Shown in pieces: positions 35,615-62,700 of a stretch of 64,000 nucleotides of DNA. The stretch comes from an uncultured delta proteobacterium (GTDB taxonomy: Bacteria > Myxococcota_A > Polyangia > Polyangiales > Polyangiaceae). Where the stretch lies: positions 288,001 through 352,000 of the forward strand of contig CAVQUB010000015.1 of NCBI GenBank assembly GCA_963716725.1, given 5' to 3'. A program made the position numbers and the translations under genes. Under the pieces are notes generated by a model. The model did no database searches and was not told the origin of the DNA. It was given only the letters and a program-made list of their open reading frames with translations. Every line of letters starts with the position of its first letter. Within the stretch, counting starts at the first letter, position 1.

Positions 35615-38600
35615 CTAGCCGCGCCGGCGTCGGCGGGATGCCGCGAGCAGGCCGGCCAGGCCCAGCGCGATCCAGCTGCCCCGAGGCGTTGGCGCGCTCG
35701 AGGCCGCGCGGCAGTCGCAACCGCCGGCGGGGTACACGGGCACGGGCTTGGCTTTCGGTGTGATGCTCAAGCTGGACGTGGTGCTGTTGTTAGCGGTGGT
35801 GGTCTCGCAGTCGAGATCGCTCGAGAGCTGAGCGGTCACGGCGAGGGTCTGCGAGTCGGTGCCCGCCCGCACGGTCGCGGTCACGGTCACGGTGCTGCCC
35901 GGGGCCATCTCGCCGAGCGCGCAGTCCAGCTCGCCCTTGCCGTCGCACTTGCCTTGGCTGGCGGCGGCGCTCACGACGGAGCCGCCCGTGGCGCTGCCAG
36001 TCAGCTTCACCGATTCGACGCTGAAGGGACCGGAGTTCGCGACGGTGAAATGCAGGTCGGTGGTCGCGCCGGCGGCGACGCTGCTCTCCCACGCGACGCC
36101 CAGGCCCAAGTCGCCCGAGACGCTCGGCGCGAGGCTCACGACCTCGAAGCGTGAGCCGGCGACGTTGGTGTGGTGCAAGAGCAAGAGATCGAGCGGAAAG
36201 CTGCCGGTTCGCCCTTCTTCCGACACGCCCACCAAGATCGGGCCCGGACCGACGAAGAGCGGCAGGCCGTCCGTGCCGTATTTCGCCGTGTCGAGCAGGG
36301 GTTTGCCGGCGTCGAAGCGCGCCCAGGCGGTCGCTTCGCCCAGGGTGAGATCCTTCGGATCCTCGATGACCGCGGAATAGGAGAGCACGGGGCTGTCCGC
36401 CGACACTCCCAAATCGCTCAAGAGCGCGGTGAAAACCAGCACCGAGTTGTTGAACACGTGGGTCTGGGCCACGTCGGGGGTCACCAGATTGAGCGGGAGG
36501 CGCCGAATGCGTTGCTCGCTGCCCTTGGCGTAGGTGGAGGAGGCCAGCGCATCCCGGAAGAAGAAGCTCTTGTTCCGGGCTTCGGCCCGGATCTCGAAGT
36601 CGGCGTTGCCATCGTCGTCGGAGTCGACGTTGATGCTCACCACACTCAGGGGTCCGCGGGCGGGCGTGGTCCAATCGCCGCTGACGGCCACCGCGAAGAA
36701 GATCTGCGCCTCGTCGAACGACGCCGCCGTGGCTAGATCCGTCGCCGCGCCGATGGCACGCAGATCCACCATGGCGACGGTGGGATTGGTGGCTGACTCG
36801 GCTCGTTCGTCGTCGAGGGCGCCGAGCTGGAAGGCCGTCACCACGGGTTCGGGGTGTGCCGAGTCGCCGTCGAGCGCGACCTTCACGGTGGACTCCACGC
36901 CGGGGCCGCAGTTCTTGGGTGCAATGCCTCGGCGGTTGGCCCCGGCTCGCACGCTGCCCTGATAGGGCACGAGCACGTCCTGGCCGCCACCCCCGCTGTG
37001 AACGAAGCGAACGTTGCCGCTGGCCTCGTTCAAATAGTGCCGAGCTTGCTGGCTGACGATGGCCGCGGTGCCAGGGTCGGGGCCGGGGCTGCCGAGCGCG
37101 AGCGAATCCAAGCTCAGCGCCACGGTGACGGTCGCGCTCTGTCCCGCCGCGACTTTCACCGAGGTCGGTGCGACGCTGACCGTGACGCCGGGCAGGGTGT
37201 GCGTGGGAAGGACCGTGGCGTCGAGCACGGCCTCGCTGGTGGCGTGATTGGTGAGCGTGATGCTGCGCTCGACCGTGGTCTTGGTGTCGCTCACCACCGA
37301 GCCGAAGGCCACGCCGATCTCGCCGCCGGCGACGTCGGCGCCGGCCGTTATGAGCTGCTCGACGGCACGCTCCACGGCGACTCGTCCGCTGCCCACGATG
37401 GACGTCTGGTAGCGCTGTGACGTCAGATCCTCGAGGGGCTCCGTGCTGTTCATCAGCGCCGCCTTGACCTCCATGGGCGAGAAGGCCGGTCGCGCTTGCC
37501 GCACCAGCGCCGCGGCTCCCGCCACCACCGGCGACGCCTGGCTCGTGCCCTGGGAACGACGCGGCTCGTTGCCGGAGCCGACGCGAGCCGAGTCGATGGA
37601 GAAGCCCGGCGCGGCGATCTCGGGCTTGAGCCGCCCGTCGTCGGAGCTGGGGCCCCGGGAGCTGAAGCCGGCCAGCAGCTCGGCGCCGACCCCGGTGTAC
37701 GGGTCGCTCGGATCGAGGCCCGCCGTGAGGCTTCCCTGCGCCAGGGCTTGCTTGACCTTTCCCCCGTCGACCAGGCGGATCATCACGCCGGGGATGGGGA
37801 CAGATCCGGGATCGCCACCGCCCATGGCGAAGGGCAGGGGCTCGTCCTCGTCGTCCACGATCACCACGGCCGCGGCCCCTGCGGTCGCGGCGTTGTTGAA
37901 CTTCTGGATGAACGAGCACACTCCGCGGTCGATGAGCGCGATCTTGCCGCTGATGGCGGCGGCGTTGGAAAGCGCCGAACACCCATTGGCCGGCACACTC
38001 GCGATCAGCGGACCGCTGATGGGTCCCGTGTCGACCAAGCGCTTGCTGAATCCGCCCTCTGCGGCGGCGTATTTTTCGGTGCCCGCGGTCGACGTGACGC
38101 TGAGGGCCAAGAACTCGTTGTCGGCGCTGGCGGCGACGGCGAGCGATTGGGGGACCGAGGCCGGCGACGCGACCACGAAGAAGGTCTGACCGTCGTTGCC
38201 CGCGGCGGTGACCAAGAGCGTGCCGACCTTGGTGAGGTTCTCGACCATCGTGGTGGTGACCGGTGAGTTGAGGGCGTAGCCGGTGCCGAGGGAGCCGTTG
38301 ACCACATCGAGGCGATCCGCGAAGTTGCCGTCCTGGTTCGGATCCGAGGCGCGTTCGAGGGCGGCCGCGAGCATGCTGGTCGACCCATCGCAGCCGAAGA
38401 TCCGCAGCGACCACAGCCTGGATTTCGGCGCGACCCCGGGCGCGATGCGGAACGCGGTGGGCACGAAGCTCACCGAGTAGGGGCCGAGGTAGGCGCTGCC
38501 GTCCTGCTTGACGCCATTTCCGCCTGCGATGCCCGCCACATGAGTGCCGTGGCCCCCGGCGACCGCCGTGCTCTCGGGCTTGGTGCAGTCGAGCGGATCG

Positions 38601-39289
38601 GGATCCGGGCTCGGCACGTTCACGTTTGCGGTCGGGTTGTAGTCGTCGCCCACGAAGTCCCAGCCGCCGACCACCCGAGCGGTGGGGAAGCTGCCCGCTT
38701 CGATGATCTTGGAGTTGTTGCTGGTGTAGGCCGCGACCGTGCCGGGACCGCCGAAGTCCGCGTGCGTGTAGTCGATGCCCGAGTCGATGACGCCGATGGT
38801 GACGCCGTCCCCATCGAGCGGCGTGCTCTTGGCCCAGACCTCGGGCGCTCCGACCACCGGCAGCAGCGAGGCTAGCTGCGGGTACAGCAGCGGGACCTCT
38901 TCCACGCGCGCGACGCCCGGCAAGCGACGGAGCCGCTCCACTTGGGGCCGAGTCGCGACGACTTGGATCACGTTGGCGAGGCGGCTCAGCTCTGCGATGA
39001 CGACGGCGCCCTGCTCTTCCAGGGCGGGGCGCAGCGCGGCGTGCTCGGTGTCGATCTCGCGCAGTCGGCTCTGTGCCGCCGCCGCCGCCTGAGCCGAGCG
39101 AGGATCGACGCCGTCGGGGATCCGGCTGACCGCCGCCGGGCCTTCGAGCACGACGAAGTACGACGCGAGGGGCCCGGAGGTGCTGACCGCAGCACCGCTC
39201 CGCGCGAGCGGTTCGGGCGGATTCGACGCGGCGCAGGCCGCGATGAGAAGACCGGCGCCGAGGGGGAGGGCAGTCCAGGGTCCACGCAT
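35615..39289 (-). CDS. S8 subtilisin-like protease (prodomain, PA domain, DUF11-like Ig domain, MYXO-CTERM)
   Basis: VIDSGID, HGTHVAG, AAGN, GTSQASPVVAG, ALIDRGVCSF and a GGCDC...RRRRR tail. Confidence 0.92.
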   Translation of the reverse strand: MRGPWTALPLGAGLLIAACAASNPPEPLARSGAAVSTSGPLASYFVVLEGPAAVSRIPDGVDPRSAQAAAAAQSRLREIDTEHAALRPALEEQGAVVIAELSRLANVIQVVATRPQVERLRRLPGVARVEEVPLLYPQLASLLPVVGAPEVWAKSTPLDGDGVTIGVIDSGIDYTHADFGGPGTVAAYTSNNSKIIEAGSFPTARVVGGWDFVGDDYNPTANVNVPSPDPDPLDCTKPESTAVAGGHGTHVAGIAGGNGVKQDGSAYLGPYSVSFVPTAFRIAPGVAPKSRLWSLRIFGCDGSTSMLAAALERASDPNQDGNFADRLDVVNGSLGTGYALNSPVTTTMVENLTKVGTLLVTAAGNDGQTFFVVASPASVPQSLAVAASADNEFLALSVTSTAGTEKYAAAEGGFSKRLVDTGPISGPLIASVPANGCSALSNAAAISGKIALIDRGVCSFIQKFNNAATAGAAAVVIVDDEDEPLPFAMGGGDPGSVPIPGVMIRLVDGGKVKQALAQGSLTAGLDPSDPYTGVGAELLAGFSSRGPSSDDGRLKPEIAAPGFSIDSARVGSGNEPRRSQGTSQASPVVAGAAALVRQARPAFSPMEVKAALMNSTEPLEDLTSQRYQTSIVGSGRVAVERAVEQLITAGADVAGGEIGVAFGSVVSDTKTTVERSITLTNHATSEAVLDATVLPTHTLPGVTVSVAPTSVKVAAGQSATVTVALSLDSLALGSPGPDPGTAAIVSQQARHYLNEASGNVRFVHSGGGGQDVLVPYQGSVRAGANRRGIAPKNCGPGVESTVKVALDGDSAHPEPVVTAFQLGALDDERAESATNPTVAMVDLRAIGAATDLATAASFDEAQIFFAVAVSGDWTTPARGPLSVVSINVDSDDDGNADFEIRAEARNKSFFFRDALASSTYAKGSEQRIRRLPLNLVTPDVAQTHVFNNSVLVFTALLSDLGVSADSPVLSYSAVIEDPKDLTLGEATAWARFDAGKPLLDTAKYGTDGLPLFVGPGPILVGVSEEGRTGSFPLDLLLLHHTNVAGSRFEVVSLAPSVSGDLGLGVAWESSVAAGATTDLHFTVANSGPFSVESVKLTGSATGGSVVSAAASQGKCDGKGELDCALGEMAPGSTVTVTATVRAGTDSQTLAVTAQLSSDLDCETTTANNSTTSSLSITPKAKPVPVYPAGGCDCRAASSAPTPRGSWIALGLAGLLAASRRRRRG

Positions 39290-39378: not shown

Positions 39379-40620
39379 ATGGCCGAGCGCTGGATCCTGC
39401 ACGCCGACATGGATGCGTTCTTCGCCTCCATCGAGCAGCGGGATCGGCCTGAGCTCCGAGGAAAGCCGGTCATCGTCGGCGCAACCAGCCCCCGGGGCGT
39501 GGTGGCCGCGGCCTCCTACGAGGCCCGGATCTTCGGGGTCCGGTCGGCGATGCCGGGCTTCCGCGCGCGGGAGCTGTGCCCCGACGGGATCTTCGTCGCC
39601 AGCGACATCGAAAAGTACGCAGGCGTCAGCGCCGAGGTGCACGCGGTGTTCGCCGAGGTCACGCCGGAGATCGAGCCCGTCGCGCTGGATGAGGCCTTCT
39701 TGGAGATCACGGGCTCGGTGGGGCTGTTCGGTGGTCCGGTCGAGCTCGCGCGGTTCTTGAAGCGTCGCGTGCGCGAGGCGGTGGACCTGCCCATCAGCGT
39801 GGGCCTCGGGCCCACCAAACAGGTCGCCAAGATCGCGTGCACCCTGGGCAAGCCCGACGGGCTCTTGTTGGTCCCGCCCGAGGCCGTGCGGTGGATGCTC
39901 GATCCGCTCTCGGTGCGGCGCATCTGGGGTATCGGTCCAGTGCTCGGCGATAAGCTCGAACGCTTCGGCATCCGGACCATCGCCCAGCTCGCCGCCTTCG
40001 ACCCGCGCACGCTCGAGCGTGAGCTGGGTGCGCGGGGCCAGGAGCTCCAGGCTCTGGCCCGGGGCGAGGATCCGCGGGCCGTGGTCAGCGAGCGCGATCC
40101 CAAGAGTTACGGTGAGGAGAACACCTTCGAGCGCGACGTGCTCGACCGCGAGATCGTGAGCGCCGCGCTCACCTCGCACGCCGAGGCCGTCGCTCGACGC
40201 CTGCGTCACGACGGCTTCCGCGGGCGCGTGGTCACGCTGAAGGTCAAGCTGGGCACACGCAGCGGACTGCGCGCGCCGCGGGTCGCGGGACAAGACGCGG
40301 AGCCCGTCTATCCGCTGCTCACGCGCCGGAAAAGCCTGTTGGACCCCACCGACGACGGAGCATCGATTCGGCGGACCGCCCTCGAGCTGTGGGACGCGCT
40401 CGCTCTCGACGAGCCCGTGCGGCTCCTCGGCGTGTCACTCTCGGGCCTCGAGGCGACGGACCGAGCGCAGCTCGATCTGTTCGCGTCGCCTCGCGCGCCC
40501 GACCGGCTCGGGCCCGCGCTCGACGCCATCCAGGAGCGGTTCGGGCGCGGCGCGATCCACCGGGCGGTGGACGATCCGGGCAAGATCACGCCGGGTATGC
40601 GTAAGAAGCGCGGGCAGTGA
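39379..40620 (+). CDS. dinB: DNA polymerase IV
   Basis: ILHADMDAFFASIE, AASYEAR.FGV.SAMP, LDEAFL, KPDG and IWGIG. Confidence 0.95.
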   Translation: MAERWILHADMDAFFASIEQRDRPELRGKPVIVGATSPRGVVAAASYEARIFGVRSAMPGFRARELCPDGIFVASDIEKYAGVSAEVHAVFAEVTPEIEPVALDEAFLEITGSVGLFGGPVELARFLKRRVREAVDLPISVGLGPTKQVAKIACTLGKPDGLLLVPPEAVRWMLDPLSVRRIWGIGPVLGDKLERFGIRTIAQLAAFDPRTLERELGARGQELQALARGEDPRAVVSERDPKSYGEENTFERDVLDREIVSAALTSHAEAVARRLRHDGFRGRVVTLKVKLGTRSGLRAPRVAGQDAEPVYPLLTRRKSLLDPTDDGASIRRTALELWDALALDEPVRLLGVSLSGLEATDRAQLDLFASPRAPDRLGPALDAIQERFGRGAIHRAVDDPGKITPGMRKKRGQ

Positions 40621-40664
40621 GGCCCTCTTCGCTTCCGGCGCGCGAGCCGCTATGCTCCGCGCAA

Positions 40665-41440
40665 ATGCGCGCCGTTCGCTCCGTGTCGTTCATCGCAGTC
40701 GTCGGTCTGCTCCCAGCTTGCGCCACCCAGGGCGTGCTCTTCGACGGCCACGCCGAGCCGCGCATTGCGCGCCCGGCCGAGCTCGGGGAGGTCGAGACCC
40801 TGCCCGCCGGATACGACCGCATCGGTCGGCTCCGCGCGAGTTGCACCTTGGTCGAAGGCGCGCACCCCGGCGATGGCGCCAAGCTCGTCGATGTCGACTG
40901 CACCGAGAGCCGTCTGATGGCAGCGTTGCGCGAGCGCGCCGCCGAGGTGGGGGCCGAACTCTTGGTGGACCGCCGCTGCCAATCCCGGATCGCCTCGCAG
41001 AGTGACACGTCGAGCGAACTCGACATTTCGTGTGACGCGGATGTCGCGCGACCGAGCGGAGATTCGATGGCGCGGCGCCCCCTTGTCTCGGGGGTGATGG
41101 CCGACGACGCTGCGCCGCGTGCCCAGGAAGCCTGGGCCATCCGCGTGCACTTTGCCGCGGCGCAGGGCGTACCGCAGCGGCCTCCGCGGCGCGCGGACAT
41201 GGTGCGCGAGGTGCCCTACATGCCCGGCGCGAACCTGCGACTGGGGGACATCGTCACGCGCTGCAGAGAAGGCTGCACCAAGGACGGCGCCCGCCTGGGC
41301 CTGATGGCAGCAGCGGGTCGATTTGGCGCCTTCGACGTGGTGGACCTGAGCTGCGTTGCCAAGGGCAAGGGCTACCAGTGCAGTGGGGTTGCGACCGCTC
41401 CGGAGGTCAACCCCGAGCTCGAATCCCAGGGCGCGCTGAG
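40665..41440 (+). CDS. Cys-containing lipoprotein of unknown function; as assembled it reads through into the phosphatase gene
   Basis: Lipobox LPAC and two similar alpha/beta units. An out-of-frame TGA near 41437 would become its stop if one G were removed. Confidence 0.55.
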
Positions 41441-41459
41441 CCGAGACCGGGTGCCGTCG

Positions 41460-42125
41460 ATGGACATCCTGCTGGTTCGCCACGGGGAGACCGATGCCAA
41501 CGCCCAGGGCCGTCTCCAGGGCTGGCTCGACACCTCGCTGTCCGAGCGAGGTCGCGCTCAGGCGCGCCAGCTCGCGCGTTGGCTCCGCGACGCGCAGGTC
41601 GGGTGGGACGTGGCCTACGTCTCACCGCTGGCGCGCGCGCGGGAGACCGCGGAGATCGTTTGCGCCGAGACCCCGGGACCGCCTGCGGTCGTCGATCCCG
41701 ATCTGACGGAGCTGAGCGCGGGTTCCCTCGAAGGGCTGACGCACGAGGAGATCGCAGCGAAGCATCCGGAGTGGATGACGCGCAAGGTGACCGAGCTCGG
41801 CGACTTCTCCGAGTTCGGTGGCGAGAGCTACGACGATCTGCAGCTGCGATCGTCGCGCTTGATCGAAGGCTGGACACGGAAGCACGGCCAGCAGTCCTCT
41901 CGCGTCTTGGTGGTGGCTCACGGCGGGATCAACTTCCAGCTGCTCAAGCGGCTGATCTGCCTGCCGGTGCCCCGCGTCTGCATCGTGCGCATGGGCAACT
42001 GCAGCGTGACCCGAGTGAAGCTCCGCGAGCGCCGCGGGACGCTGATGGGCGAGCTGGTGTTTCACCTGCCCATCGAGATGATGGGGCAAGTGACCTCTGC
42101 GGATACCGGCGTCCTGTTTCGCTGA
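41460..42125 (+). CDS. Histidine phosphatase (phosphoglycerate mutase family)
   Basis: LLVRHGET..N, SPL.RA.ETA, GGES and VVAHGG. Confidence 0.88.
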   Translation: MDILLVRHGETDANAQGRLQGWLDTSLSERGRAQARQLARWLRDAQVGWDVAYVSPLARARETAEIVCAETPGPPAVVDPDLTELSAGSLEGLTHEEIAAKHPEWMTRKVTELGDFSEFGGESYDDLQLRSSRLIEGWTRKHGQQSSRVLVVAHGGINFQLLKRLICLPVPRVCIVRMGNCSVTRVKLRERRGTLMGELVFHLPIEMMGQVTSADTGVLFR

Positions 42126-42167: not shown

Positions 42168-43115
42168 ATGCTGGGACGCGCTCTACTGTTGCTCGCACTG
42201 GTAGGGTCCGGCTGCGGCGGCGGCGAGGCCGACTCCAAGGCGGGCGGCACGGGCGGCGGCGGAGCCAGCGGGACCGGCGGCACCAGCGCGACCGGCGGGG
42301 GCGCCGGCAAGGGCGGCCCCTGCGCCGACGATCCTGGACCCGGTTCGGTGTGCGTGATGCACGTGTTGGGGCGGGTGGTGGACGGCGCGGGCCAGCCGCT
42401 GCCCCAGCTCTCGACCAGCGTCTGTGGCGAGGTGTGCTGGTTTGGCGAGTCCGACGCCAGCGGCGAGTTCAGCGTGGCCATCGGCGAGCGCATCCTCCCC
42501 GGCCTGTTCTCGGTCTTGCCGCACGGTCGCCCGAAGCACACGAGCTTCTACTTCCCACTGCCTGCGGCGCTCTCGGCGAGCATCGACGTCGGCGACCTCT
42601 CGTTGCTCGAGCTTCCTGCCAGCGGCCCTGCGCTCGTGGTGTGGTCCGACAAGCAGGGCGCGCCGGCCCAGACGGTCGACAGCGGCGGTCTGCGTCTGGA
42701 GGTGAGCGCGGGCACTCAGGTGAAGCTCGACGTCGAGGACGTCGCACAAGACGTGCTCGGCAGACAGTTCCGCGTGCTGCCGATCCCGGCGGCGCAGCGC
42801 GATCACTTCGCCGATGGGGCGCTGGGTCTCGCGGCGTTGTGGGCGCTGATGCCCTTCGAAGCCGCCATCGTGCAGGAGAGCGGCGGCGCGCCGGCGCTCG
42901 CGCGGATCAGCGCCGACAACAGCGCGGTTCTCCCGGCGGACACCGCGGTCGAGTGGTTGGCGCTGGGCAGCTATTTGTTCGCGGACTGGGTGGCCCCGGC
43001 CCAGTTCGAGGTCGTCGCCACCGGCAAGGTGAGCTCGGATGGCCTACGCATCGAAATGGACGCTGGGCAGGGGACCCCGTACCTCACGTGGATCGGAGTG
43101 CGAAAGAAGCCATGA
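42168..43115 (+). CDS. Lipoprotein with carboxypeptidase-regulatory-like beta-sandwich
   Basis: Lipobox GSGC, Gly linker and GRVVDGAGQPL...SDASGEF. ATGA overlap with the next gene. Confidence 0.65.
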   Translation: MLGRALLLLALVGSGCGGGEADSKAGGTGGGGASGTGGTSATGGGAGKGGPCADDPGPGSVCVMHVLGRVVDGAGQPLPQLSTSVCGEVCWFGESDASGEFSVAIGERILPGLFSVLPHGRPKHTSFYFPLPAALSASIDVGDLSLLELPASGPALVVWSDKQGAPAQTVDSGGLRLEVSAGTQVKLDVEDVAQDVLGRQFRVLPIPAAQRDHFADGALGLAALWALMPFEAAIVQESGGAPALARISADNSAVLPADTAVEWLALGSYLFADWVAPAQFEVVATGKVSSDGLRIEMDAGQGTPYLTWIGVRKKP

Positions 43116-43843
43116 CACCCAAGCACCTGCGGAGCATTTCGATCGGTCTCGTGCTCGCCCTCCAAGTGGGCTCGGGCGCGTGCGGTTCCGATGACGCGTC
43201 GGGTAACGGTGGCAGCGGCGGCCTCACGCAATCCGGTGGCAGTGGCGGTCTCACCGCGGGCGCGGGCGGGGTCGCCACCGGAGGCTCGGCCGGGGTGGGG
43301 CTCGATGCCAGCGCGGACGCTCCCATCGACTACGGACCGTACCCGGCCGGGCCCTACGGCAACGCGGTGGGCGACACCATCGCGAACCTCGCCTGGCAGG
43401 GCCACGTCAACCTCAGCGCGGCGGTTTCGTCCGACACGCTGCCCTCCAGCGACTATTCGACCGACGACATGCGCAAGAGCGGCAAGTCGTACGGGCTGAT
43501 ACACCTCTCCGCCTTCACCTGACCCGGCTGCAAGAAGGCCGCCCAGGTCTTGGGCGGGAGTCAGCAGAAAGGCAAGGCGGCCATCGAGGCGGGCGGTCTG
43601 GTGGTGGAGATCCTGCACTCCGGCGACGTGCTCGCGTGGATCAAGGCCGAAGACCTGCACGTGACGGTCGTCGAACCGAAGGACCCGCAGACCTTGGCGG
43701 CGCTCGTCTCCCGCGAGTGGACCTACGTGATCGATCTGAAGACCATGAAGATCGTCTGGAAGGGCTTCGGCAGTTACGATGGCAGCAAGGCCTCGAGCGT
43801 CGACGCGGGCCTGAGTGAGCTGATGACCCTGCTCGGCAAGTGA
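43112..43843 (+). CDS. Thioredoxin-fold (redoxin-like) lipoprotein with UPGC motif; probable selenoprotein, 243 aa with U137
   Basis: LIHLSAFT-TGA-PGC reads as UxxC at the canonical active-site position. The frame continues to TYVIDLKTMKI and a stop at 43843, with a SECIS-like hairpin after the TGA. Confidence 0.85.
43539..43557 (+). promoter_or_regulatory. Putative bacterial SECIS element
   Basis: CCGCCCA-GGTCT-TGGGCGG, a perfect 7-bp stem; the loop G is 24 nt after the UGA at 43520-43522. Confidence 0.75.
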
Positions 43844-43994
43844 ACGCCCGGGTCCACGCTCAGCCCGCCCCGACGCCGGACAAAAACGCGGCCAAGGCTG
43901 CTCGCTCTCCCGGGAGATCTTCGTGCGCGATCCGCTCGTGTCCCGAGATCGGCGTGGACGCCAGCGCGCTCTTCGGCGCTTACTGGGGCGGTTG

Positions 43995-45356
43995 ATGTTG
44001 AAGCTCGGCTTTGCCTTCGGCACCCTCGAACTCCGGGATCTGCCCGAGGGTCTCACGCTCCCACCGCCGGTGCGCTGGGATGCCCGGGCGCGCTGTCACC
44101 GCGCCCCGGCCCACGCCTACGCCGAACTCGTGCTCGGGCTCACCCGCGACCAGGTGCCCTTCGACGATCAGGCCCGCCGTTACGAGGAGCTGCGCGAGGG
44201 CCTGCGCGTCCGCCGCGAGCCTCGGCCCTTTCAGGAGCGGGCTCTAGAGGCCTGGCGCAAGGCGCAAGGCCGCGGCGTGGTGGTGCTCCCGACCGGGGCT
44301 GGCAAGAGCCACGTGGCGGTGCTCGCCATCGCGGACAAGAAGCGCAGCGCGCTGGTGGTCGCGCCCACCTTGGATCTCGTGCGTCAGTGGTACGACCTGC
44401 TGCGCACCAGCTTCGGCACGGAGGTCGGCATCGTGGGCGGTGGCGAGCACACGGTGCTGCCGCTCACGGTCACCACCTACGACAGCGCGCACCTGCACAT
44501 GGAACACTTCGGTGCTCGCTTCGGGCTCGTGGTCTTCGATGAGTGCCACCACCTGCCGGGGGCCACCTACCAGCTCGCCGCCGAACAGTGCCTCGCCCCC
44601 TACCGCCTCGGGCTCACGGCTACGCCCGAGCGGAGCGACGGCCGCGAGGCGACCCTCGACGATCTAATCGGACCGATCGTGTGCCGGGTCGAGATCGGGG
44701 AGATTTCTGGCAGCTTTTTGGCTGAATACGAGACAGTTCAGCTCAGCGTCGAACTCAGCCCGAGCGAACGCCAAGAGCACGACGAAGAGCGCGCTATCTA
44801 CCTGCAGTTCCTCCGATCCAACGGCATTCGCATGGGCACGCCCCGGGGCTGGGGCGAGTTCGTGATGCGCTCGGCGCAGCGCACCGACGGCCGGCGCGCG
44901 ATGCGAGCCTACCGCCGGCAGCGCGAGATCGCGTTTGCTTCGGCGGCGAAGCTAGACTTCGTCGAGAGCCTCTTGGAACAACATCGTAAGGATCGCGCGC
45001 TGGTCTTCACGCAAGACAACGCGACGGCCTACGCGGTGGCGCGCCGCTGTCTGGTGCCGGTGATCACCCACCAGACCAAGGTGAGGGAGCGCAGCGAAAT
45101 CCTGGAGCGCTTCGCGCGCGGCGACTACGGCGCGGTCTCCACCAGCAAGGTCTTGAACGAGGGCGTCGACGTGCCCGACGCCAACGTGGCCATCGTGATC
45201 AGCGGCTCGGGATCGGTGCGCGAGCACGTGCAGCGGCTGGGCCGCATCTTGCGCAAACGCGAGGGCAAACAGGCCATCTTGTACGAACTGGTCAGCGGCG
45301 GCACGGCAGAGACGGGCACCAGCGAGCGCCGCCGCGAGCACGAGGCCTACCGCTGA
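43995..45356 (+). CDS. XPB/Rad25-like SF2 helicase
   Basis: LPTGAGKS, DECHH, LGLTATPER, VLNEGVDVPDA and QRLGRILR. Confidence 0.88.
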   Translation: MLKLGFAFGTLELRDLPEGLTLPPPVRWDARARCHRAPAHAYAELVLGLTRDQVPFDDQARRYEELREGLRVRREPRPFQERALEAWRKAQGRGVVVLPTGAGKSHVAVLAIADKKRSALVVAPTLDLVRQWYDLLRTSFGTEVGIVGGGEHTVLPLTVTTYDSAHLHMEHFGARFGLVVFDECHHLPGATYQLAAEQCLAPYRLGLTATPERSDGREATLDDLIGPIVCRVEIGEISGSFLAEYETVQLSVELSPSERQEHDEERAIYLQFLRSNGIRMGTPRGWGEFVMRSAQRTDGRRAMRAYRRQREIAFASAAKLDFVESLLEQHRKDRALVFTQDNATAYAVARRCLVPVITHQTKVRERSEILERFARGDYGAVSTSKVLNEGVDVPDANVAIVISGSGSVREHVQRLGRILRKREGKQAILYELVSGGTAETGTSERRREHEAYR

Positions 45357-46588
45357 TGCTGGGCCCGGACCACGTGCGCGTGCGGCGCCAAGGCGATCTG
45401 CTGATCTTGCCGCCCTTCGACAAGAAACGCCGGGCGACGGCCCTGAGCTTGGCCACCGAGGTCATCGCCATCGCGGCGGAAAGCCAGGGACAGCGCCGGC
45501 GGGCGCTGGAAGAGGCCGTGGCCGCCATCGAGTGCCGGCCCAGCGAGCGTCGCATGGTCGAAGGGCTCGCCAAGCTCTTGCTCGATGCTTGCGACATCGA
45601 GTCGCCCAGCGTCGTGGACGTGCCGGCCTTGCGTCGCGCCATCTTCGAACGCGCCGCGGAAGAACGCCGCACGCTGGCGCCGGGCACGAACCTCGACCGC
45701 AGCGTGGTGCTGAAGGAAGTCGGCGCCAGCTTTGGACTGTCGCCGGAGGCTGCCGACGAGGCGCTGTTCTCGGATCTGCCGAGCGAGGCCCGGCTGACCC
45801 GGGTGCCGGCCTTGACGCCCGAGGTGCTCGCGGACGACTACGAGCGCTCGTCCCGGCAGGCCATCCTGCTCAAGGCCGTGAGCATCACCGCGGACGTGGT
45901 GTGTCGTTCACCGAGCGCGTACCGGGTGCTCTTCGGGAAGCTGAAGTTCCGACGGCTGCTGCATCGCATCGAGCGCACCGAGCGCGGCTATCGGATCGTG
46001 ATCGACGGTCCCCACAGCCTCTTCGACTCGGTCACCAAGTACGGCCTCAGCCTCGCGCTCATGTTGCCGGCGCTCGAGGCCGTGGACGAACTGCGCCTGT
46101 CGGCCGAACTCCGCTGGGGCCGCCGCCGCGAGCGCCTGACCTTCAGCTACGAGACCCAGGGGCCCGGGGGCGCGGGCGGAGACGCCGTCGAGAACGACGA
46201 CGTTCGAGCGCTGGCCGAGGCGATTTCGTCCCTCGACACGCCCTGGCGGGCGGCGCCCGCCGAGCGGCTCTTCGACGTGCCGGGCCTGGGTGTGTGTGTG
46301 CCCGATCTGACCTTCACCCACGCCAAAACCGGGCGGGCGGTGCACCTCGAGGTGCTCGGCTATTGGAGTCGCGACGCGGTGTTCCGCCGGGCGGAACTGG
46401 CCGAAGCGGGCCTGCCGGAGCCAGTGGTCTTCGCCGTCTCGAGCCGGCTTCGAGTCAGCGAAGAGGTCCTCGACGACCGGACCGCGAGCGCGCTGTACGT
46501 CTACAAAGGCGTGATGAACCCCCGGGCCGTCGCCCGGCGCCTCGACGAGGTCCACGCCCGGCTTTGCTCGGGGCAGGGCCTCGTGTAG
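45356..46588 (+). CDS. DUF790 / Bax1-like nuclease
   Basis: IDGPHSLF..TKYG..LA and a C-terminal VPDLTF...HLEVLGYW PD-(D/E)xK-like motif; translationally coupled to the helicase. Confidence 0.85.
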   Translation: MLGPDHVRVRRQGDLLILPPFDKKRRATALSLATEVIAIAAESQGQRRRALEEAVAAIECRPSERRMVEGLAKLLLDACDIESPSVVDVPALRRAIFERAAEERRTLAPGTNLDRSVVLKEVGASFGLSPEAADEALFSDLPSEARLTRVPALTPEVLADDYERSSRQAILLKAVSITADVVCRSPSAYRVLFGKLKFRRLLHRIERTERGYRIVIDGPHSLFDSVTKYGLSLALMLPALEAVDELRLSAELRWGRRRERLTFSYETQGPGGAGGDAVENDDVRALAEAISSLDTPWRAAPAERLFDVPGLGVCVPDLTFTHAKTGRAVHLEVLGYWSRDAVFRRAELAEAGLPEPVVFAVSSRLRVSEEVLDDRTASALYVYKGVMNPRAVARRLDEVHARLCSGQGLV

Positions 46589-61797: not shown

Positions 61798-62700
61798 TTA
61801 CCTACGCCGGGCCGGCCTGCATCGGCGACGCCGCGCACGGGCGAGGCCGAGCGCCCCGAGCCCGAGCCCGAGCGCCCAGCCCCCGGCGGTCCCGGCGCTG
61901 CCCGGCGCGGTGCTGCAACAGCCCGTGTCTTCCAGGGGTTCACCGCAGTCGATGGAAAAGCCGTGGCGCGGCGTCGGATCGCAAGAGCTGGTGTCCTTGC
62001 CGGGAGGGTAGATGGCGCAGATGCCAGCCACGTCGTCGGCCTCGAGGGTACGCAGGCCCGTCTCGCCGAACTGGTAGCTGGCGTACATGGTGGCGAGCTT
62101 GTCGCACGAGTGGGACAAGCCCAAGAAGTGTCCGGCTTCGTGCGCGATGATCGACGAGAGATCCGCCTGCACCTGGGTATCGCCGACCGTGAGCGGCACC
62201 TCGATGGAATTGATCTCGACGTCCGAGTCGTAGATCTCACCGGTCTTGACGTTGTAGGTCACGGTGGTCAGCGCGAGCGTGGAGCCGCTGCCGGCGTAAG
62301 GCCAGGCGTCGTCTCGGTACATCCAGACGTTCGCGTTGGGCGAGTCTTGGTTGTACTCCTGCTGGCCGCAGACGACCTCTTGGGTTCGGTAGATGTCCAG
62401 GGACGGCGGTGCGCCGCCGCAGTCCACCGCGATCCATTGGGCGAGGGCCTGCTCGACCAGCTGTCCGGTGGTCGCCGCCGAGATCCCGCGCAGCGTCGTT
62501 CCCGACACCTGCGTCGAGAACGAGGTGCAGCCGCCCGGCCAGTACAGCGGCAAGCCCCCGGTCAAGCAGTACGCGCACTCGGGTGCGGCCTGGCACTGAC
62601 CGGGGCTGCAGGTGGTCGTGCGACAGAAGGCTCGAGCGTGCTCCGCGGCCAGCGACAGCCCGAGCCCGAGCCCGAGGCAGAGCCAGCGACTAGCGCGCAT
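61798..62700 (-). CDS. Matrixin-like (M10) metalloprotease with MYXO-CTERM
   Basis: AHEAGHFLGLSH, Met-turn ATMY, DDVAGICAIY and a GCCS...RRRR tail. Confidence 0.88.
   Translation of the reverse strand: MRASRWLCLGLGLGLSLAAEHARAFCRTTTCSPGQCQAAPECAYCLTGGLPLYWPGGCTSFSTQVSGTTLRGISAATTGQLVEQALAQWIAVDCGGAPPSLDIYRTQEVVCGQQEYNQDSPNANVWMYRDDAWPYAGSGSTLALTTVTYNVKTGEIYDSDVEINSIEVPLTVGDTQVQADLSSIIAHEAGHFLGLSHSCDKLATMYASYQFGETGLRTLEADDVAGICAIYPPGKDTSSCDPTPRHGFSIDCGEPLEDTGCCSTAPGSAGTAGGWALGLGLGALGLARARRRRCRPARRR

Follow-up and report, generated by a model that had tools for sequence, protein, structure and literature searches.

The subject of this report is a putative selenoprotein gene, together with the lipoprotein gene directly upstream of it, on the forward strand of a stretch of DNA of 64,000 nucleotides from an uncultured delta proteobacterium of the Polyangiaceae (GenBank assembly GCA_963716725.1, contig CAVQUB010000015.1, positions 288,001 to 352,000). 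This whole stretch is referred to below as the window. A listing of open reading frames (ORFs) under translation table 11 breaks the gene in two, giving one ORF that ends at 43522 and another of 97 amino acids (aa) which begins with TTG and covers 43550-43843. A first-pass annotation, made from the letters of the window, had joined these pieces into one gene, and the translation bears this out. Once TGA is read as selenocysteine (Sec, U), a single and continuous frame of 243 residues occupies 43112-43843, with U137 in the context HLSAFT-U-PGC-KKAA, and the sole TGA in frame other than that at 43520-43522 is the terminal stop. At its 5' end the gene shares the bases ATGA with the gene upstream, whose TGA stop (43113-43115) overlaps the ATG start (43112-43114), an arrangement already pointed out in that annotation and one that would couple the translation of the two genes. 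The features of the pair are collected in Table 1.

Table 1. Positions in the window of the selenoprotein gene, its parts and its upstream partner
Feature	Position	Strand	Basis
Upstream partner gene, 315-aa lipoprotein (predicted)	42168..43115	+	Comparison of orthologues, AF2 model
Selenoprotein gene, 243 codons and stop TGA (43841-43843)	43112..43843	+	Translation with TGA as U
Predicted signal peptide and lipobox, ending at Cys24 (codon 43181-43183)	43112..43183	+	Sequence pattern, conservation of C24
Gly/Ser/Ala-rich low-complexity tether, residues 25 to ~73	43184..43330	+	pLDDT 52-59 over residues 1-70
Y-P-A-G-P-Y-G motif opening the folded domain, residues 77-83	43340..43360	+	Conservation
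UGA codon for Sec137, first position of U-P-G-C	43520..43522	+	Aligned TGA and TGC/TGT codons
Codon for Cys140, resolving Cys of UxxC	43529..43531	+	Invariant in A3
SECIS-type hairpin, 7-bp stem, GGUCU apical loop	43539..43557	+	Folding, 26/26 Sec contexts, covariation
Arg201-Glu202 at the x-cisPro dipeptide site	43712..43717	+	A3, HMM alignment to ResA

Conservation of the TGA codon

A search of 5.8 billion proteins returned 36 relatives of the encoded protein. Thirty of these are gene calls of 134-178 aa, all of which end one residue before the UGA codon with tails such as ...IH[LIV]SAFT and ...HLSEFY, while the remaining six are full-length (228-311 aa) and have cysteine at the Sec site, within the sequences YYCAGC, SDCPGC, FNCPSC and VWCGDC. 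Among 61 related genomes 22 were matched, and in 11 genomes there are strong matches with exactly one in-frame TGA. A scan of GTDB genomes with an alignment of 13 rows (A4) added 22 loci, from metagenome-assembled genomes of Polyangiaceae, Polyangiales and Myxococcales. Across 52 related loci, 46 tblastn hits cross residue 137 and provide 42 unique contexts of 72 nt, in which the aligned codon is TGA in 26 and TGC or TGT in 16. This alternation, along with the six full-length homologues, upholds the earlier proposal that the TGA stands at the first Cys of a CxxC motif; in other words, alignment of homologues gives either CxxC or UxxC at the site, as had been anticipated. Moreover, protein similarity is undiminished beyond the TGA, even in relatives of ~30% identity, and Cys140 is invariant in the alignment of 29 family rows (A3). 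The residues ahead of Sec differ among contexts (SAFT, LQGU, EFFU, AVFU).

The codon is also unchanged in independent assemblies. Contigs of runs X1 and X11 have no differences from the window and those of run X6, from a differing strain, have 15 elsewhere; the three runs belong to three studies, and all three carry TGA, none TGC or TGT, at 43520-43522. Contigs of a further run, X4, do not reach the TGA. The contigs compared with the stretch come from a biofilter run, a wastewater run and a groundwater run, and the metagenome runs which contain part or all of the stretch carry biofilter, wastewater, groundwater and sediment labels. In this regard, TGA also serves as the ordinary stop of both the selenoprotein gene and its upstream neighbour, and there is therefore no general reassignment of TGA in the organism.

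A SECIS-type hairpin downstream of the TGA

The 7-bp hairpin with a GGTCT loop that the first-pass annotation described is located at the position given in Table 1. Its stem begins sixteen bases past the TGA, the 5' arm (43539-43545, CCGCCCA) and the 3' arm (43551-43557, UGGGCGG) being paired across the loop at 43546-43550. Published criteria for the bacterial selenocysteine insertion sequence (bSECIS) are a loop of 3-9 nt, a stem of 4-16 bp, a G in loop positions 1-2, a distance of 16-37 nt from the UGA and a minimum free energy of ≤ -7.5 kcal/mol (PMC13188914, section 5). The window's hairpin lies within all of these limits, with a loop of 5 nt starting from GG, 7 bp, a UGA-to-loop spacing of 23 nt and a folding energy of -15.6 kcal/mol for its 36-nt segment. 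A scan of 43000-44000 against Rfam at E ≤ 10 gave no SECIS family, and a minus-strand match to COG3860, which scored 12.4 bits where the gathering score is 42.5, was set aside as chance.

The comparison of orthologues is more telling. In every one of the 26 Sec contexts a single hairpin forms at a constant distance from the UGA, whereas the 16 Cys contexts have scattered, weaker structures with none in common; the median folding energies are -13.4 and -9.7 kcal/mol, respectively (one-sided Mann-Whitney p = 0.0027, a value that is overstated as the rows are related). The hairpins fall into two types. Type A (16 sequences) covers the codons of A-A-Q-V-L-G and has a GGUCU-like loop, and type B (10 sequences), from other lineages of the family, covers those of A-A-R-D-L-A and has the loop CGUGAUCU. 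One column-for-column structure for all 26 was considered and rejected, since the pairing registers of the types are offset by one column, and they were for this reason tallied apart, on ungapped alignments. Type A bases are paired in 87.5% of cells, as against 30-45% with a slid partner, and type B in 91.4% as against 24-44%, with changes on both sides of the stem in 3/8 and 3/7 pairs, respectively. Hence compensatory changes accompany the retention of the hairpin. In 11 of the 16 type A sequences there is a one-base bulge on the 5' side of the lower stem (alignment A5).

The SECIS of Escherichia coli fdhF has an apical loop of the GGUC type and a bulge in its stem. The hairpin described here resembles it in lying just 3' of the UGA and in having a small apical loop which begins GGUC, but it differs in the sequence of the stem and in that the present protein family possesses the second, CGUGAUCU-looped type. 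As a separate observation, the Cys forms are far more variable across the peptide stretch that coincides with the hairpin (A5/A6, loci L016-L066).

Selenocysteine machinery

The host genome, which is 84% complete in 35 contigs, contains the machinery for selenocysteine, the presence of which the first-pass annotation had left to be confirmed. Matches to selA (467 bits), selB (280.7 bits against a cut-off of 242, with its C-terminal part matched separately), selD (302 bits) and, adjoining selB, the selC gene for tRNA-Sec (70.3 bits, anticodon TCA) all exceed the curated cut-offs. Among the 61 related genomes selB is above its cut-off in 21, made up of 10 of the 11 genomes with the TGA form as against 11 of the 50 others. 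In six genomes the forms that cross the site are all Cys forms, and four of these (G026, G036, G028 and G020) show no selB. The genomes are kin to one another, and this co-occurrence is therefore to be read as a check of consistency and not as a statistical test.

The selD gene is itself a selenoprotein gene (G000 contig C6:227368-228291, locus L047), with an in-frame TGA in QGGG-U-ARKLP and, ~19 nt downstream of it, an 8-bp hairpin with a GUC loop.

A putatively exported thioredoxin-fold protein

In the N-terminus of the protein, MTPKHLRSISIGLVLALQVGSGAC, charged residues at the start are followed by a hydrophobic core and a lipobox, after which a Gly/Ser-rich stretch extends to about residue 73. 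Residue C24 does not vary in A4 and is kept in at least 90% of A3 rows, and orthologues have canonical lipoboxes (of L/V/I-A-A/G-C type) such as LAACG, VACS and LTACS. The tether differs in length and composition among orthologues and is of low confidence in the model. Signal peptide, lipobox and Gly-rich tether are thus as the first-pass annotation had them, and suggest an N-terminus of lipoprotein type. The folded domain then opens with a motif in which Y77 is invariant and P78, G80, P81 and G83 are kept in at least 90% of 29 sequences, all five being invariant in A4.

An AlphaFold2 (AF2) model built with 29 sequences has a predicted local distance difference test score (pLDDT) of ~98 over residues 71-243, which form one thioredoxin-fold domain spanning the TGA. 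Since this single domain runs across both pieces in the ORF listing, neither half is a domain alone. U137 lies between a strand (127-133) and a helix (138-147), such that the redox dyad is placed at the N-terminus of helix 1. When the A3 profile is compared with sequences in the PDB, ResA of Bacillus subtilis is the best match (E 7.8e-9), followed by Etrx (2yp6), DsbE (3gl3), StoA, DipZ, CcmG and TlpA (1jfu, E 0.38), and the 60 matches listed of 80 include no peroxiredoxin at E ≤ 1. Structure comparison (VIA) places ResA (2f9s) at Z 15.1, with a root-mean-square deviation of 2.3 over 132 residues, DsbE (3gl3) at 14.9 and TlpA (1jfu) at 11.9. The fold class, a thioredoxin fold of TlpA/Prx kind, is nearly certain. 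Among the 29 family members the Redoxin model matches 3 and the NCBIfam ResA model 2. A deiodinase-like reading was also entertained, given Dio3 at Z 13.6, Dio2 among the Foldseek matches and the T-U-P sequence of the window's protein; as the Thr preceding Sec varies among the orthologues, this reading was abandoned.

Replacement of the cis-proline

The first-pass annotation had remarked that the cis-Pro usually found before the late beta-strand appears to be replaced (in SREWTYVID), and the replacement proves to be a trait that defines a clade. In A3, the columns of Arg201-Glu202 hold T/Q/L/F/M-Pro in the distant WCxxC relatives (n = 12), and in an alignment of hidden Markov models (HMMs) the L-P of ResA LPTTFLIN lies opposite the r-e of the family; Arg201 is, in other words, aligned one residue ahead of the cis-Pro position and not on it. 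Over 49 unique domain sequences, every Sec form (27/27) has Arg-Glu or Arg-Asp at the x-Pro site, while the Cys forms are divided between 10 with R/K-E/D and 12 with Pro, and R/K-E/D is found in all 37 members of the Sec-bearing clade. A maximum-likelihood tree of the same sequences sets the Pro/WCxxC group (12 rows) apart from the Arg-Glu group (37 rows) with support of 100/95. Within the latter group His131 is nearly invariant, the deepest branches include Sec forms, and the Cys forms are nested at several places, with well-supported branches forcing at least four changes between Sec and Cys. The tree is rooted only at its midpoint and consequently does not fix the direction of these changes.

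The upstream lipoprotein

The sole neighbour which abuts the selenoprotein gene encodes a protein of 315 aa with a lipobox (LVGSGC) and then a Gly-rich linker. Among 19 unique sequences of this protein (alignment A7), C52, C86 and C90 are found throughout and C62 and G87 nearly throughout, giving a C-G-x-x-C motif. It is all-beta in an AF2 model with pLDDT 86.9, and its N-terminal domain is like carboxypeptidase-regulatory, CnaB or transthyretin-like domains, these being small-domain matches in Foldseek; with the whole chain the Foldseek matches are only weak (best E 1.4e-4, TM 0.23). There is no match in Pfam or NCBIfam. Relatives of the protein in databases are all unnamed proteins of Myxococcota, and its Atlas neighbours are hypothetical proteins of this phylum, some of which contain CarboxypepD_reg.

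At 22 of the 52 loci an orthologue of this gene lies directly 5' in the same orientation; the downstream gene is a Sec form at 18 of these and a Cys form at the other 4. The stop and start overlap as they do in the window at 9 of 10 loci where both ends are defined, the starts having been picked by a lipobox heuristic. In one NCBI record, too, the locus tag of the upstream lipoprotein comes immediately before that of the shortened selenoprotein piece.

Paralogy within the family was also seen. At least two Sec paralogues occur in each of several genomes, namely L022/L038 (G006), L023/L039 (G014), L024/L040 (G046), L020/L041 (G002) and L021/L042 (G004), and second copies such as L041 and L042, which have U-S-A-C, are without the partner gene.

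Proposed function and alternatives

Taken together, the observations are best accounted for by an exported, lipid-anchored selenoenzyme of thioredoxin fold, decoded at UGA, probably recycled by a DsbD/CcdA-type protein and having the upstream lipoprotein, or what it binds, as its most likely client, a reading to which, as a whole, we give a probability of about 0.6. By this account SelB and tRNA-Sec would decode UGA137 as selenocysteine under the direction of the hairpin, and the protein would be exported and anchored by lipid at Cys24, with a flexible linker of ~50 residues separating the anchor from a TlpA/ResA-type domain (residues ~75-243) in which Sec137-Pro-Gly-Cys140 opens the first helix. 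The selenolate of Sec137 may then attack an extracytoplasmic client at a disulfide or at some other sulfur or selenium centre in its oxidised state, following which Cys140 would resolve the intermediate to leave a selenenylsulfide. Electrons to reduce the Sec137/Cys140 pair again would probably come by way of a membrane protein of the DsbD/CcdA type, and the host genome does contain a DsbD_TM gene, whose product is a possible donor. The most likely client or partner is the four-cysteine beta-sandwich lipoprotein upstream, or its ligand. The parts of this account differ in their strength. The gene is very probably a genuine selenoprotein gene, in which the insertion of selenium is itself deduced; thiol-disulfide oxidoreductase chemistry is probable by analogy with the family that the protein resembles; and the identification of the upstream protein as client is tentative. 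Lipidation, the direction of the redox reaction and the electron donor are likewise put forward as inferences.

Several observations weigh against this account. The lipoprotein assignment is a prediction from sequence pattern and conservation. The window's protein has no Pfam match at E ≤ 1 and no NCBIfam (June 2026 release) match at E ≤ 0.01, such that its placement in a family comes from the profile of its relatives and the predicted structure. One genome with the TGA form, G004 (84% complete), has no selB above the cut-off, several paralogous selenoprotein copies are without the upstream partner gene, and there is no RNA run among the runs listed as containing the stretch. Furthermore, the cis-Pro loop is what holds peptide substrates in thioredoxin-like oxidoreductases, and with this loop gone a classical protein-disulfide client becomes less certain. 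In the structure comparison, peroxiredoxins of the BCP type tie with ResA (2a4v at Z 15.5, 3drn at 15.0 and 5epf at 14.9), and such equal scores mean that structure does not tell a reductase from a peroxidase. Finally, the 66-nt stretch that holds the hairpin is, taken alone, unexceptional for G+C-rich DNA (z -1.34, with 19 of 200 shuffles equally stable), which is why the significance of the hairpin is taken from the comparison of orthologues.

This last point, that the hairpin alone does not stand out from shuffles, is also one of the few in favour of there being no selenoprotein at all, the gene being instead broken or split, an artefact of assembly, or read through at the UGA by some other tRNA. 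Standard ORF calling does split the gene, and its orthologues are publicly annotated as shortened 'hypothetical proteins'. Such an explanation is nevertheless hardly credible in view of a TGA that recurs in 26 unique contexts over several genera with the downstream frame conserved, of independent assemblies that agree on it, of a hairpin that covaries, of a predicted domain that requires both halves in order to fold, of the ordinary use of TGA as a stop by the gene and its neighbour, which tells against general reassignment, and of selB being found alongside the TGA form in 10 of 11 genomes. A peroxidase of peroxiredoxin or GPx-like kind is a more serious rival, as the exchange of cis-Pro for Arg-Glu and the peroxiredoxin-like structure together imply, though we consider it unlikely. 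Here Sec137 would be oxidised by peroxide to a selenenic acid and Cys140 would resolve it, with Arg201 aiding activation of the substrate. The catalytic Arg of peroxiredoxins lies in the loop equivalent to the cis-Pro loop, and the invariant Arg-Glu that replaces cis-Pro, the near-invariance of His131 in the Arg-Glu clade, the structural matches just given (to which Foldseek adds Ahp1/Bcp) and the matches of PF00578 (AhpC-TSA) to 13 of the 29 family members at E ≤ 0.1 (best 3.1e-10, the window's protein not among them) are all in keeping with it. The peroxidatic motif of peroxiredoxins, P-x3-T/S-x2-C, is however absent, positions -1 to -4 being variable with no Thr or Ser at -3; the redox motif is UxxC, of thioredoxin type; the profile search finds proteins of ResA/DsbE/TlpA type and, at E ≤ 1 in the part listed, no peroxiredoxin; and Arg201 is one residue ahead of the position of cis-Pro.

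Less probable still is a role in the handling of metals or metalloids, whether in keeping the thiol pair of a copper site or chaperone in the reduced form, as TlpA does, or in binding Hg, Cu, As or Se species in concert with the upstream lipoprotein. TlpA is indeed among the profile and structural matches, and the upstream lipoprotein has an invariant C-G-x-x-C along with two further Cys. Exported selenoproteins and lipoproteins of the SAO system have, in addition, been proposed as metal binders in the account given in bioRxiv 10.1101/2022.07.06.499078. Set against this, no metal-related gene is found among the conserved neighbours, and neither protein matched a metal-binding family in Pfam or NCBIfam. 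Within the selenoenzyme account itself, a more specific suggestion, which we regard as rather doubtful, is that the Arg-Glu clade constitutes a two-lipoprotein redox module particular to Myxococcota and distinct in its chemistry, in which His131 and Arg201-Glu202 stand in for cis-Pro. Sec would be ancestral in this module and lost repeatedly to Cys where the Sec machinery vanished, and the target, instead of disulfides in general, would be one particular oxidised species that the upstream lipoprotein carries or on which it arises, the candidates being a peroxide, a persulfide or sulfenic centre and a metalloid.

Relation to known systems

The closest known proteins are ResA, TlpA, CcmG (DsbE) and Etrx, which provide the best profile matches and share with the window's protein a dyad at the start of helix 1 and, as its sequence suggests, an N-terminal export signal with anchor; pneumococcal Etrx2 is an exposed lipoprotein thioredoxin according to the title of its PDB entry. 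Unlike these, the window's protein has Sec for the first Cys, lacks a Trp before the dyad, has Arg-Glu for cis-Pro and possesses the invariant YPxGPYG motif. Its gene is, moreover, partnered with that of an all-beta, four-Cys lipoprotein and not with genes for cytochrome c maturation, Sco or Msr. With BCP-type peroxiredoxins there is equality of Z (14.9-15.5), and both have an Arg in the loop that leads into the late beta-strand, but the window's protein has the UxxC dyad in place of the peroxiredoxin active-site signature.

Selenoprotein families with UxxC in a Prx, TlpA or Trx fold appear among those already catalogued in PMC13188914, PMC2398784 and PMC1794560, and exported and lipoprotein selenoproteins are described for the SAO system in bioRxiv 10.1101/2022.07.06.499078. 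The catalogued Prx-like and TlpA-like selenoproteins resemble the present one in having UxxC in a Prx/TlpA-like fold and homologues with Cys, a likeness of motif and fold class, but the window's protein matches none of their Pfam models at E ≤ 1 and no NCBIfam selenoprotein model. The main text of PMC13188914 contains none of the terms Myxococc-, Polyangi-, lipoprotein and periplasm, and no mention of Myxococcota or Polyangiaceae was found in the text of the selenoprotein papers searched. As far as Pfam, NCBIfam and this literature go, therefore, the family is apparently uncatalogued and, in so far as it has been sampled, limited to Myxococcota. The sequences indicate a genuine selenoprotein that belongs with the well-known UxxC proteins of thioredoxin fold and is set apart from them by Arg-Glu for cis-Pro, the predicted lipid anchor and a dedicated lipoprotein partner.

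The family would as such be an addition to the bacterial selenoproteome from Polyangiaceae. Gene callers and public records currently stop its members at the UGA, as in 30 of 36 database clusters, the pieces being named 'hypothetical protein' by NCBI, and a family model would mend many annotations in Myxococcota. It also offers a natural comparison of Sec with Cys in a thioredoxin fold that is putatively exported and lipid-anchored, where the form that is present follows the presence of selB, and poses a question of structure and function in that a nearly universal cis-Pro has been exchanged for Arg-Glu in a manner linked to the use of Sec.

Neighbouring genes

Beyond the upstream lipoprotein, the genes within ~10 kb (among them those for an S8 protease, a histidine phosphatase, a polymerase of DinB type and an XPB helicase followed by a DUF790 protein) are functionally unrelated, and the upstream histidine phosphatase and downstream XPB helicase recur at few loci. 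The first-pass annotation had suggested that the selenoprotein might serve many Cys-rich surface proteins encoded nearby. This part of it found no support, as most of the putative exported proteins of the window contain no more than ~2% Cys. The one clearly Cys-rich exported candidate, an ORF of 300 aa at 61798-62700 (-), begins much like a signal peptide, contains 16 Cys (5.3%) and is 18 kb away.

Some further features of these genes may be recorded. On the minus strand at 35615-39289 lies a gene for a subtilase of 1224 aa and of lipoprotein type, with a Peptidase_S8 domain that has a PA insert and with a C-terminal DUF11. It is followed at 40617-42125 by the gene for the phosphatase, a protein of 502 aa with 14 Cys, a lipoprotein-like start and a His_Phos_1 domain at residues 284-476, the first ~280 residues being without a family match; at seven or more related loci this gene likewise lies upstream of the pair, in synteny. 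Downstream, the XPB/ERCC3-type helicase (ResIII, XPB_DRD, Helicase_C) occupies 43923-45356 and the DUF790 protein 45356-46588, and this pair, of helicase/nuclease type, is also found downstream of the selenoprotein gene in L023, L058 and L060.

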